DNA of 64,000 nucleotides from Lingula anatina (Eukaryota; Animalia; Brachiopoda): contig CM120647.1 in NCBI GenBank assembly GCA_051362555.1, positions 6,324,001 to 6,388,000 of the forward strand. The letters are read 5' to 3'. How positions within the stretch are numbered: position 1 is the first letter of the stretch; every line of letters begins with the position of its first letter. Below the pieces are notes generated by a model. The model ran no database searches. It saw nothing but the letters and a program-made list of their open reading frames with translations, and had not been told where the DNA came from. Positions 40,401 through 55,400 of this stretch are shown here, piece after piece. The position numbers and the translations under genes are program-made.

Positions 40401-43400
40401 GGACAATAATCAATAATAATCAACAATTGCTACCTTGGCAGAGGTCTGCACTCTCGGAGCACTTTTCTAGTTTTGTTATGTTTTCCTTTATAATTTTTTC
40501 TCAAACACTTGCATTTGTGACTTTTAACTCTCATCCGCCTGAGGCTCTGACATTTCTGTATTTCCACATAAGCAGTTGTATTGTTTTTTATGTCTTTAAA
40601 CATTATGTTACTTATGTAATATTATTTTATGCACTGTCATCATTTTTCAAATATTGAGACTTTCATCATGTGAATTTAAACTCATGGTCCTGAAACTGTA
40701 ATCTTATTGAAAGGGTAGATTGAGACCATCTTCTGGGTCTTCCAGAAGACAGTCAGGTTATTAAGTTTATCTTGCCTGGTATCTATTTTTTCTTCTGTTG
40801 GAAGACCATCAAAATGGAGGATGGATCAAAATAGATACTTTGGAATACTGTCAGAAAATATCTCTGGGTCCGCTCATGTTATTGACCATTTTACCTGTTG
40901 TGCATGATTAAAATTCAGTGTTGACTGACAGTGCTATTATATACATTATTTATTATTGCATCAAAATTGACAAAATGACCTATTTTGCATCTTTATTTTC
41001 AGTTTTTTGTCTGTACATTTGACAGCTTTGCTGCCTTGTTCCACTTGTGAATCTCAGTTTCAGTTTTCACAGTTAGATTTAGCAAAGAGTATTGTAATTA
41101 TGTGCATGGTGGCTTCGTTAAATTGTTTTCGGGTCATCTGATAGTGCTAGTTTAGCCAGTATCCATTTTAAAGCAACCCTGTTTGAACTGACCTTGTAGA
41201 AATGACATGGCTCACTTTTTAGATTTAAATCTAGGGGAGTATTACTTAGCTGGTAGTCAAGCTGCTTTTAGATTTTCAATGGGGCCAGTTTCACACACAC
41301 ACAAAAAAAAAAAAAAAACCTGGAAATTGGGCTCAAGTTGAAAATGGAGAAGAAAAGGAAAAAAAAAATTAAGATGAATATTTTGGATTAGTGCTCTGTC
41401 TTGACACTGTTGTAGTTCTTAGTATAATCTCACAACTTGATGATAAAATCTTCTTTATATGAAACCACCACAAAGGAGAATTTTATTAGAATATTGGTCT
41501 CTGCTTAAAAGCCAAGAATGTGCTTTACTTACGTGCACGATAATTCCATTGTAGTTTGCTTAAAGAAAGTACTGGTCTAAAATATTAGCCATATAATACA
41601 GCTCAAAATCGGATTTAGTTGGGACTACCGATTTCTCTTGGTTTTAAGTTGAGTAAAATGTGATTAAAAACTATGACCAATTCTTTTCTTCTTGCTTCAC
41701 ACCTTCCATGTTAAACGAGCCCCTTGGTTGTTTGCAAGGTCATCCGAGGTTGATGCGTGAAAGTGCTAAGAAGTGTCGCCCGTCTACTACCTTTGATAGC
41801 CAAAATCAAGATACTGTTGTGACGGCCTAAATTAAGACATTACGTGTTAGTTTTCAGAGACAGATCAATATTTCCCATCTCACGAGTACCTGGAATTAGT
41901 TTTGCTTTCAGGGGGAAAGGAATGGGATTTTAGCATGCATTTCATGCTTGTTTCTGTGGTTTGAGAAATGAGAATTTGTCGTGTGTCTACGGTAATTGCT
42001 AAAAAAATTTGGATGACATGGATTCATCCAGTGTGTCCCAAACCAATGTTTTTGTGCCTTAAAAGTTTACTGTAAATGTTCAAAAGGTTCCTATGACATG
42101 GAATGATTCAATGTCGAAAGATGTGTTAATAAGTCTTATTGTTATATTCCTGAGAAGGGGTTTTCCCAGGATTGGGGATACAGCCCGTCCAAATTTAGCA
42201 TCTGTAATTTCCTACAAAATTTCTGGGATTCTTAATATGCCCAAAGCCATAATATTTCCAAAAAAAGAAAAGAAAAAATCCATAAGCCGTCTAGCTGTCT
42301 TTGCAAATTTAGGCTGTCCGGTGACGTTGGTGGCCGTCCAAATGATGGCTAGATAGTCTGCTGGGAAAACCCTTGCTTCTGATTTTCTTTAATAACTCTA
42401 TATTCACACAGTTTGCACCTCTGTTTTGGACTCTAAGTCTTTCTAGCTGCAAGACTGAAAAGTGCCCCCCCCCCCCTCCCGAAAAAAAAAATTACATAAA
42501 AAAAAAAATTAAATTGCTTTTCTATTTTCCCTCAATAAAACTATTATATTATTTCTGTTCTAGCCTCCCAAGGTCTCCCAGGACCGCCGAGTCTCCAGAC
42601 CACACGGCCTCCGCTAGGAGGAGATAGCTTGCCTTACCCAGGTAATAGCTTGCCGTATCCAGGTAATGTGACCACGAGTTTTACTTTCTATAGAGGCTGG
42701 TATAGCAGCGCGAGAAAGCATGCAGAGCAGTTCTCAAATGCTTGGGGTGTGGGTTTCACTAAAGAACTTTAGCCTGCTATTTGGTCTAGGCTTTAGTTCT
42801 AAGAGAATTCCACAGTAGTTCAGTGTTGATAAAGTAAGTTTTGCCTTTCTCTTTTTTTAAAGGGACACAGTAATTCATTTTCATTTGAATAAGCATGGAT
42901 TTATCTTGAATTAAAGTAAAGTAAACTAAATTTTTGGTCTTAAGTTTAGACAATTTTTTTTCGGGCTCAAGCCCTTTTTATTGAGTGTTCCCCAGAGTGT
43001 ACAGGAAGCCCCAGTGCACCATGGGAACTTGCTGCCCTCTTGCATTATGGGAACTTGATGTCTTAAAGCATTGTTGGAGTTGTTTGCATTGATTGGTTTT
43101 CAGTTGGATTAATTTGAAAGTAAATTGGAATTTCCAAGATCATTCTGAAAAAAGAAATTTAAAAAATAGTACTTTTTATTGCCAAAGCAGATTTCCTAAG
43201 ACATCTTTTATTTCACTGGTCTTATAAAACCTCAGTTTTTAGAAGTTTTGATTGGTTATTGAAACTGAACATATTGGCTCTACATTTCTGCTATCTGATC
43301 GCTAAAAAAGCATTAAAATATTTGGAGCTGCTTTCTGCTTTCTTGTGCTGTAGAAAAATATCAGCCTGACATATTGTATGTGTAAATATATATATCTATT

Positions 43401-52400: not shown

Positions 52401-55400
52401 TTAGAAATTTGAAAAGTTCTCTTTCATTTTCCATCTTTGGAATCATGTGTACTCTTCCATTTTCTATCTTTGGCATCGTGTGTGATTAAGAAATCATAAA
52501 ATTAAGTAATTATATAATTTATAAATAATATAAGTAAATAAATAGGAAGAATTTAAATGTTCTAGGTGAATCTTCTCTTATTTTTAGGCAACTGCAAGAT
52601 CAGCGCCAGAGAGAGAAAGGGAGATCAATAACCTGGTAGGGGAATTTATTTAGTAATTGAATTCTCCCTTGTTAAATTAAGTATTTAAAGTATGAAGTTC
52701 ATGCAATGATGTGTTCCATCCTCATGATGATTAGATTAAATTTGAAATAACTGTGAAAAAAATTAATTTGGTAGAAAAGTTTTTACATTGATGATAGACT
52801 TTTATAATTTGTGCACAACGTTGAGTGGATATATATATTTTTTATCTGAAAAAATATAAATGCATATTTCATCAAGTGCATTACAAATGTATTGTTGTTT
52901 GTTAGTATGCCTTTGCCCCATTTTTATAAGAATGTTTCTTTTTTTCAGACATAAAGCTATGTTAAGCTCATATTTCTGATTCACTTGCCATATGATTTTT
53001 TCAGGGGACCCCCAAGTTGTAAATATTGTATGCAAAAGTCTTTTTGTATTGCAGAGATCTTTTTCTTCCAGATTGGTCCTCAGCTTATTGTTGCTTGCTG
53101 TCGATGTTGCTGGCCTAAATGGCGATGTTACATGTAGATCTGTTGCTGCTATTTCAAATTTAGATTTTTTTTGTTAGATTTTTAAATTGATGGAATTCTT
53201 TTGGCATGCTTCATTATATTACCTTTTGGGTAGGGTATTTCTTAGGTAAAAAGATAAAATATTTTGGACATCTCATTTTTTTGTGATATATTCAAGAATA
53301 GTATTCGAGTTTTGTTTTCAAACTGTCAAATAATAGACTATTGTACATATTTTAAGTTATCACAAAATTTTAAAGCGGCAGGCATGGCACATGTTTTAAA
53401 AGATTGAAAGAATATTCTACAAAAAATCAAAAATTAAAAAAAATTCACTGTAAGAATAGAATTTGACAAGGTTTGGGCTTTTGGGCAACTTCTATTCATA
53501 GAAAAGTACTTAGTAGTAATAAATGTGATTTGATAAACTGTTACATCCTAGGAGCCACTGCATGATACCACCAGATGGAGCCACTGTTAAGTGTTGTCTG
53601 CTTTTAAGCAAGAAGTCCCACTAATGCTACTTTTCCACTACTATTGTCTAGGTTGGCAAGGCAGACTTCAAAAATGATCTGTTCCTTCAAACGTTCGGGG
53701 TCACGGTGAACCCGCAAATGGTCGAAGTACAAGGCCGAGTGTTGCCGGCGCCCAAACTGCAATATGGCGGCAGGGTAGGCAGCCATCTTGATGTAAGATG
53801 TTGTCTCAAACGAGTGGGCTCATATGCGGTGTCTTTTTTTTTTTTTCCTTAATTTTTTTTCATGTTGTTGTTGTTGTTTTTGTGCTGTTTTTTATTTATT
53901 TATTTTTGTGTGTGTGTCAACCGTAGTTTTGGGGCTCACTCGGTAGGACACTAGAGGTCACTGCTGGCACTTGCTCAAAGCTCATCAGTTATAATCCAAA
54001 ACAAGCCAAGGCTACTGGTGGACCATTTGTGACTATTACATCAGTGATATGGAAATTTTCCTTTGGAAGCAAAAATGACTTTGAAAGAAAAATTCTCAAA
54101 ATTGGAAGAATAAAATTTTGTCCCTCTTTATATTCTTTATAATTGAACCCAAACACAAAAAAATATTTTGTACAGCATAACGGGTTGATATCTGCGTACA
54201 AGTAAGCCTGTGCAATTGCTGGCAGAAATCTCTTGGTTGACTATGTCTCTCTGATCATGTTCTCTCTCTAGAATCCACACGTGTCAGTCTTGCTTAGTAG
54301 AACACGGGACAAAACTGCAGTTCGAAAACTCAGAAATAGATCTTGATATATTCATTGTGAAATATACACAAATAGAACTGAAGTATGTTGTGTTTTCTGG
54401 AAGATAAGATCAGATCAGACAGGCAGCGTCGACACTCTACTTACACCGCTTGCTAATCACCATGGCGTCCAAACTGTCATGGCCGCCATTTTTCGCCTTT
54501 GCGTCTGCCCTTCACCAATAGGGCGGCGCCACCATCTACTTACTACCAACACCAGCATTGCCAGCCTTAGCTGCAGGGACTGCTCTGCTATAGGTTCTGA
54601 TAGTAGAGGACTAATACGGATTTCAGACCTACTGATCACGTTTAGGGGTCCTAAATTCCATAAGTACTCTATACGAAACCTGACTGACTCATATGAATGA
54701 ATTTTCAGCCCCTTGACCTGCGAGATTTTAGACTTTTCAGACCCCTTTTTGCGTATGTAGGGGGAGTTAGAATCCAAACAGGCGGAGAGAGAGGATTCCT
54801 TTCACGTAGCTACAGGGCTGCAGCTCGATTGCAACTCACTCACTCACTGACCGATAGTACTAGAACTAGTACTTGTTAGAGTACGGCTCTACTACCACCA
54901 CTTACTACTAGCAATACTCTGCACATTATATTCTAACCTCTGTGTCTTGTGTACCAAATCGCACCCCCAGGTTCGTAAAGCGGACTTCAATCAGGACCCG
55001 CACCTCCAGCTGTTTGGGCTCAGTGTTAATTACCGTATGACGGAGGTCCAGGGACGCGTGTTACCACCTCCTAAAATACAGTACGGCGGAAGGGTAAGAG
55101 AAAGAAAATAGTTGTTTTTTCGTGCAGGGTAGGTAAAAATAAGAAAAGAAATGGAAACGACAAACGCAGCTGATTGATTGGACAGAGGAAGAATTAAGAA
55201 TTTGAGGCAAGAACGAAAAAAATGTTTCTTTGTAAAGGAGAGAATATGTTCATTTACAAGTTGAAGAATGGATTTTAATGAGAATGATTAGATAATGTTG
55301 TGGGGGATCAATCACAAGCCAACGTTTTGATAACAATTTAAGGCAAGATTTAAACTGGAAGGAGCGATTCAAACAAGTCTGGTTGCTACCTGAACCATGG

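Follow-up and report, generated by a model that had tools for sequence, protein, structure and literature searches.

A microRNA-type Argonaute gene of the brachiopod Lingula anatina with tandem-duplicated linker exons, of which only one copy each is likely included per transcript

Introduction

Duplicated, mutually exclusive exons are a textbook class of splicing mechanism. This study concerns a 64,000-nucleotide stretch of the genome of the brachiopod Lingula anatina (assembly GCA_051362555.1, contig CM120647.1, positions 6,324,001 to 6,388,000 of the forward strand; hereafter the window), which contains an Argonaute (AGO) gene whose exons for the L1 and L2 linkers are each present in two tandem copies.

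Among the described systems closest to this one, the clusters of exclusive exons in the muscle myosin heavy chain genes of metazoans have been gained and lost lineage by lineage, being common in protostomes and lost in vertebrates, which have several genes instead (PMC3912159). As in those clusters, tandem-duplicated exons within a single gene would replace a family of paralogues here. [quoted passage not shown] Isoforms of an animal microRNA-clade AGO have likewise been described in shrimp, where Ago1A, Ago1B and Ago1C differ in tissue expression and function; these forms are distinguished by N-terminal sequence and by a 27-residue insertion in the PIWI domain, however, and not by substitution of homologous exons (PMC3510085). 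With respect to regulation, the exclusive pairs FGFR2 IIIb/IIIc and Caenorhabditis elegans egl-15 5A/5B carry UGCAUG motifs upstream of one duplicated exon that confer tissue-specific repression, an instance of the repression that upstream UGCAUG exerts through RBFOX proteins (PMC2777236). Humans, for their part, use four genes, AGO1–4, which have the same domains as the window gene and Asp or Tyr at the same L1 position.

Results

The gene lies on the + strand of the window, and tblastn places its exons in the same order as the sequence of annotated AGO proteins. The encoded protein is 80–91% identical to the invertebrate microRNA AGOs that were compared and 76% identical to one bird AGO. In a quick tree of 22 rows it falls inside an 18-row lophotrochozoan branch (Shimodaira–Hasegawa-like approximate likelihood ratio test, SH-aLRT, 97), outside gastropods and bivalves and, weakly, beside Owenia (SH-aLRT 87). 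The domain order N-L1-PAZ-L2-MID-PIWI was recovered, and Pfam assigns the duplicated exons to ArgoL1 and ArgoL2. All four contexts that we take to be the D-E-D-H motifs were found, all in constitutive exons, from which slicing is predicted only. By these sequence comparisons the locus is a lophotrochozoan microRNA-type AGO gene, with predicted microRNA loading and target repression. Searches of the window with full-length AGO proteins (tblastn) returned no further whole duplicated exon, and the last exon of the gene was not found in the window.

A sequence-only reading of the window had reported two core pairs of same-length exons with intact splice sites and no stops, and their coordinates (Table 1), AG/GT ends, open frames and equal lengths (137/137 nt for L1, 123/123 nt for L2) were all recovered. 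The copies of each pair are adjacent, homologous, equal in length and phase and bounded by valid splice sites, which are hallmarks of homologous mutually exclusive exons. L1a and L1b share 77% of their DNA sequence and differ at 4 of 45 residues; for L2a and L2b the corresponding values are 64% and 13 of 41. Specifically, the proportion of differing silent sites (pS) is 0.81 for L1 and 0.84 for L2, and that of replacement sites (pN) is 0.07 and 0.21, respectively. Silent sites near saturation together with low replacement divergence indicate old duplications under purifying selection and not haplotype copies. The core exon pairs are thus intact, tandem-duplicated exons.

In terms of reading frame, the two pairs behave differently. 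Each of the four models that combine a single L1 with a single L2 copy is open over 945 residues. Inclusion of both L1 copies or of neither shifts the frame and leads to a stop at codon 373 or 307, respectively, so that frame logic forbids either outcome, whereas both or no L2 copies leave the frame open (123 nt). L1a also has a strong pyrimidine tract, and its donor is no worse than that of L1b.

Expression was assessed in four of nine raw-read RNA runs from the same species (X1, X4, X7 and X3) over positions 42300–51400. About 6–25% of each run was read; X4 contributed only 8 reads, and X7 was thin and more divergent. A joint was listed when it had at least 3 reads from 2 starts, and absences hold among the joints listed; counts are given below as X1/X4/X7/X3. 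Reads join L1b to the exon before it (46422>48452, 27/0/2/19) and to the exon after it (48588>50375, 84/0/0/88). The comparison of 46422>48452 with 46422>47023 that the sequence-only reading had proposed therefore has its L1b side, and no L1a counterpart among the joints listed. At the threshold of 3 reads, no joint from L1a to L1b and none that skips L1 was listed. Of the two L1 forms, L1b predominates in the runs read. Depth over the L1a bin was nonetheless 1.48 in X1, against a mean of 0.47 and a maximum of 0.97 for intron-only bins, and 2.48 in X3, against a mean of 0.50 and a maximum of 1.34. This excess over intron bins suggests some use of L1a, whose share is bounded at ~5% in X1 and ~9% in X3, while up to 40% is allowed in X7. 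The reads also contain many variant sites, marking the organism as highly polymorphic.

The same runs bear on a third pair, the N-terminal exons Na and Nb, which had been put forward as additional alternative cassettes. Homology between the two was upheld (local score 47 versus 29.5 ± 4.1, with 1 of 1000 shuffles as high), although they are unequal in length. Their mutual exclusivity was not: Na is joined straight to Nb by 151 reads over three runs, through 42641>43589 (74/0/1/39) or an alternative donor, 42662>43589 (22/0/2/13), and Nb is joined onward by 43693>45172 (58/0/2/42), with no joint from Na to 45172 among those listed. These serial joints rule out the N-terminal pair as exclusive exons and identify it as a duplication whose copies are both included constitutively, with an alternative donor that adds 7 residues, the two Na donors being 21 nt, or one 7-residue repeat, apart.

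The exons and a related full-length protein, used as queries, together with cluster listings gave at least 46 named species/gene rows, whose isoforms are automatic annotations (uncommented RefSeq models of the type 'argonaute-2-like isoform X..'), as well as 80 metagenome loci. Among the matches listed, 22 of the 46 rows have two L2 versions; they comprise mussels, oysters, scallops, abalones, limpets, caenogastropods, heterobranch snails, two Lineus genes and Priapulus. Elysia was left out of this count because its versions came from different species. Within the 22 rows, 169 of the 185 models listed carry one L2 copy, and in the RefSeq AGO models of molluscs, nemerteans and Priapulus the L2 exon that alternates between isoforms is the one duplicated in the window. 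At the genomic level, tandem L2 exons were present in 2 of the 80 metagenome loci (L004 and L005), many loci being too short to reveal a second copy and others having a single one. In both loci the first donor is GTAGG and the second GTAAG, as in the window. Two further loci, L001 (3641–3811) and L006 (9953–10123), have a single L2 copy and lack the intron before it, the exon being fused upstream as in arthropod-type loci.

A 41-column tree of L2 exons, built once one Mya and two Diaphorina rows that were parsing artefacts had been dropped along with 13 identical sequences, unites mollusc copy B across bivalves and gastropods (SH-aLRT 91), which indicates that the L2 pair is older than the bivalve–gastropod split. 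L2b groups with Owenia, Tubulanus and the second copy of L004 (SH-aLRT 88), and both Priapulus copies sit with arthropod exons. With so short an alignment, the protostome L2 pair may have had a single origin or arisen by repeated duplication, either being compatible with the tree. The mollusc A and B labels were assigned by resemblance and by exon order in Physella and Batillaria.

For L1 the picture is different. L1a matches at all 45 residues the L1 exon found in Lineus, mussels, oysters, scallops, Aplysia and Physella, which makes it the common single exon and L1b the derived copy. Multi-copy L1 matches in birds, fish and an ant proved to be fused or duplicated gene models and not exon pairs. 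Recurrence of both copies in relatives, a check proposed in the sequence-only reading, was thus seen for L2 in the rows described above and, among the rows and loci listed, not for L1.

Alignment of the relatives' isoforms revealed other swapped AGO segments. Lineus has alternative versions of exon 3, and Magallana, Pecten and Mya have them for the N-domain exon after it. The exon that follows L2 is swapped in Mytilus and Mya and is also present in tandem in locus L005 (3438 and 4531). Oysters, abalone, Mya and three snails swap the catalytic-Asp exon, and Mya, Gigantopelta and Lineus swap the last one. In Ostrea, Magallana, Saccostrea, Haliotis, Mya, Littorina, Babylonia and Pomacea, the alternative catalytic-Asp exon has Asn, Ser or a similar residue in place of Asp; no such alternative is present in the window. 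Unlike these RefSeq models, the window lacks the swaps just listed or ends before them. Judged from these alignments, the AGO gene is a hot spot of exon duplication to which the window adds L1.

Projected onto human AGO2 by alignment to a structure chain (PDB), the L1 exon corresponds to residues 174–218 and the L2 exon to residues 383–423. In human numbering, L1a and L1b differ at residues 187, 189, 206 and 210, and human AGO3 and AGO1 are likewise set apart by Asp versus Tyr at 189. The L1 span includes F182, L192, G201 and H203, which are human AGO2 disease sites at the hinge and the helix-7 interface (PMC7670403), and L192P slows target binding and release and lengthens target dwell time (PMC12529666). 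Helix-7 itself spans residues 359–369 (PMC7670403), so the L2 exon lies past it and does not encode this helix, by which the guide seed is positioned. The L1 exon, by contrast, includes the L1 hinge together with L192, which contacts helix-7. The L2 span does contain S387, Y393, K402 and S417, which are modification sites in mammals (PMC12388510). A swap exchanging S387, Y393 or K402 was considered for the window and ruled out, as these residues occur in neither copy. In molluscs, position 387 is Asp in 20 of 20 sequences of one copy and Asn or Ser in 21 of 21 of the other, with labels that are partly circular.

With respect to splicing control, four of the 28 UGCAUG motifs in the 64 kb are clustered in a 272-nt stretch upstream of L1b (P ~0.004 for a cluster of this kind anywhere in the window; 2 of 1000 local shuffles). 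This arrangement suggests an RBFOX switch; unlike for FGFR2 and egl-15, binding is deduced here from motif clustering alone. For L2, an 18-nt element behind each copy is 17/18 identical between its two occurrences, the only two in the window, and none of 300 shuffles scored as high. The L2a–L2b spacer is 1196 nt long. A docking/selector RNA switch for L2 was considered and found no support, since the best nearby duplexes of the twin element reach only -13 and -15 kcal. Within the L1a–L1b intron, the element at 47185–47236 forms a predicted duplex of -56 kcal, which none of 60 target shuffles and 3 of 60 query shuffles equalled or bettered, for a region picked post hoc; predicted pairings there are only weakly above controls, and a role for them is speculative. 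Two CACCAG(G/A)TG elements upstream of L1b (48071–48149) are complementary to two GCCACCTGGTG elements downstream (49887–49920), at about -18 kcal each, and this predicted pairing may loop out L1b. A perfect match to a CTCF-like consensus lies inside L1a (47075–47088) and is absent from L1b; none of 27 distinct homologous codon strings is perfect, and the codon-level chance is ~0.003 for a match found post hoc. One-mismatch sites lie upstream of L1b (48136–48149) and of L2a (53568–53581). These CTCF-like sites could equally be E-box-like or pairing elements.

Table 1. Features of the AGO gene in the window
Feature	Coordinates	Strand	Evidence
Candidate upstream coding exon, internal, start codon not located	26701..26813	+	AG/GT ends, frame open into 37508; inferred
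Exon spliced to 42564	37508..37567	+	Loose read ends before 42562 match exon 3' end: 86 reads X1, 40 X3
Exon Na, N-terminal, Pro/Gly-rich, donors 42641 and 42662	42564..42662	+	Read joints to 43589
Exon Nb, N-terminal, paralogous to Na, included with Na	43589..43693	+	Joint 43693>45172 and homology
Constitutive exons 45172-45511, 45858-45978, 46241-46422 (Pro-rich tail, N domain)	45172..46422	+	Read joints and gene model
L1a, linker-1 exon of ancestral type (human AGO2 174-218), putative minor or tissue-restricted form	47023..47159	+	Intact sequence, conservation, bin depth
GU-rich intron element, speculative RNA switch	47185..47236	+	Predicted pairing with 48041-48089 or 48390-48432
Four UGCAUG (RBFOX-type) motifs upstream of L1b	48089..48366	+	At 48089, 48187, 48275, 48361
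L1b, derived linker-1 exon, major form in reads	48452..48588	+	Read joints on both sides
Constitutive exons 50375-50509, 50890-50977, 51417-51564, 52222-52293, 52588-52635 (end of L1, PAZ, helix-7)	50375..52635	+	tblastn and model; first two read-covered
L2a exon (human AGO2 383-423), donor GTAGG	53652..53774	+	Sequence, Pfam, structure-chain alignment
18-nt intron element 3' of L2a, twin of 55709-55726	54520..54537	+	17/18 identical
L2b exon, DPHLQLFG type, donor GTAAG	54971..55093	+	Type common to Owenia, Tubulanus and second copy of L004
18-nt intron element 3' of L2b, twin of 54520-54537	55709..55726	+	17/18 identical
Constitutive MID and PIWI exons with D-E-D-H residues	57962..62060	+	tblastn and model

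Several other features of the window were observed. At 51727–51784 lies a recent partial copy of the preceding PAZ exon, which takes in its 3' end and donor (56 of 58 nt identical); it is probably a non-functional local duplication, which illustrates how exon copies begin. The ratio of observed to expected CpG is ~1.05 at the presumed promoter (24000–26000) versus 0.42–0.46 in the gene body (26000–62000), a contrast consistent with gene-body methylation. Divergently oriented to the AGO gene is a multi-exon membrane transporter gene (13250–17740, - strand), presumably of the SLC22 family, which it resembles. An intronless open reading frame of 171 residues at 7706–8221 (- strand) ends in a CaaX-like C-terminus (CTII) and has no Pfam match. 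Finally, a ~2.6-kb element flanked by long terminal inverted repeats, spotted by eye at 18600–21250, is likely a non-autonomous DNA transposon.

Discussion

The interpretation that we favor, with a probability of roughly 0.7, is that this lophotrochozoan microRNA-type AGO gene carries tandem-duplicated L1 and L2 exons that are likely spliced one copy each, with its N-terminal pair included in series. Its two parts differ in strength. Diversification of AGO by duplicated L2 exons is well supported by the predicted isoforms of the orthologues, and diversification by duplicated L1 exons is plausible, as the frame forbids both or neither copy and both are under purifying selection. The broader proposal of the sequence-only reading, namely AGO diversification by splicing at all three pairs, accordingly is well supported for L2 through the orthologues, is plausible for L1 and fails for the N-terminal cassettes, which are included together. 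The minimum of 2 × 2 core isoforms put forward there is a prediction, as is any difference in function between them.

Several observations weigh against this interpretation. L1a junctions stayed below 3 reads in all 4 runs, of which ~6–25% each was read, and a second L1 exon was found in none of the 46 rows among the matches listed and in none of the 80 loci. Only 4 residues separate the L1 copies. Both L2 copies of the window have Asp at 387, Asn at 402 and Lys at 417, with Phe or His at 393. Comparison of the intron elements between the window and the 80 metagenome loci gave matches at chance level only. Finally, 16 of the 185 models listed hold both L2 copies in tandem (Physella 8/9, Priapulus 6/8, Batillaria 2/2), and L2 exclusivity may therefore be leaky.

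These observations invite two other explanations, both of which we consider improbable. In one, L2 alone is a working switch, and L1a is a leftover that was long conserved and has recently fallen silent, no longer being spliced at a useful level. The missing L1a junction and the lack of a two-exon L1 in any relative listed would both follow, and the depth excess over L1a is worth only 3–8 reads. We nevertheless judge this explanation rather unlikely, since L1a, although its silent sites are saturated, shows no replacement change relative to the ancestral exon, its pyrimidine tract is strong and its donor at least equal to that of L1b, and the UGCAUG cluster sits where repression of L1b would be expected. 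In the other, the L2 copies are in-frame cassettes that are not strictly exclusive, and a sizeable share of transcripts has both, with a 41-residue insertion. That 123 nt preserves the frame, that a 1196-nt spacer is too long for steric exclusion, that the twin 18-nt element has no convincing pairing partner and that double-copy models exist all speak for it. Among the matches listed, however, 19 of the 22 rows show single-copy models only, the tandem models may be products of prediction, and a doubled structural linker would probably misfold. We regard this second explanation as quite unlikely.

An assembly artefact, in the form of haplotype copies or a collapsed duplication, might be entertained for so polymorphic an organism, and a recent 58-nt partial exon copy is indeed present at 51727–51784. 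The copies of each pair have nevertheless diverged at 0.8 per silent site, their flanking introns are unrelated and the same L2 pair is present in other phyla; copy divergence and conservation rule the artefact out for all practical purposes.

If L1 and L2 are indeed spliced one copy each, the following mechanism can be proposed. An RBFOX-type protein on the four UGCAUG motifs would repress L1b, such that L1a is chosen, probably in neurons or muscle. L1b would then be the default form and L1a the form used where RBFOX is high, which fits the dominance of L1b in the samples read. Products with both L1 copies or none would be removed by nonsense-mediated decay, and L1 exclusivity would thus reside in frame and decay. 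The choice of L2, which has no frame guard, would probably be set by weak donors and the twin element behind each copy. As for the outcome, L1 choice likely tunes guide and target kinetics through the L1 loop beside helix-7, and the L2 surface swap likely tunes partner or modification sites, with catalytic residues unchanged.

In relation to published work, the sequence-only reading knew of no earlier description of this arrangement for an animal microRNA AGO. Among the matches listed from full-text literature, with subscription journals largely outside, none dealt with an animal AGO gene that has duplicated exclusive exons, and in a study of human tandem-duplicated exons (PMC8373072) a passage search did not find AGO1, AGO2 or Argonaute mentioned. 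RefSeq models already imply AGO exon pairs. A survey of RNA interference (RNAi) in 35 mollusc genomes counted AGO genes and reported loss of the small interfering RNA (siRNA) machinery (PMC12479628); lophotrochozoans appear to be without a dedicated siRNA AGO, according to the same source, and its text and one supplement, as far as covered, gave no match for AGO exon isoforms. The view that a known splicing device has been applied to AGO is thus partly confirmed, with L2 broad and L1 lineage-restricted and predicted.

A more far-reaching proposal, which we hold tentatively and consider doubtful, is that exon swapping lets lophotrochozoans derive a family of RISC cores with distinct functions from a single gene. 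The L2 switch, older than the bivalve–gastropod split, would hard-wire states of the surface that is controlled in mammals through modification of S387/Y393, as in the Asp versus Asn or Ser of the two mollusc copies at 387, and lineage-specific switches such as an RBFOX-type L1 would give neurons or muscle a different target dwell time.

The exon pairs offer natural two-state experiments on the L1 loop, the site of a human AGO2 disease cluster, and on the L2 surface that bears S387, Y393 and K402, and they are relevant to the design of RNAi in molluscs and annelids. If the swaps alter function, many animals would have tissue-specific versions of the central microRNA effector that surveys based on gene counts have missed.

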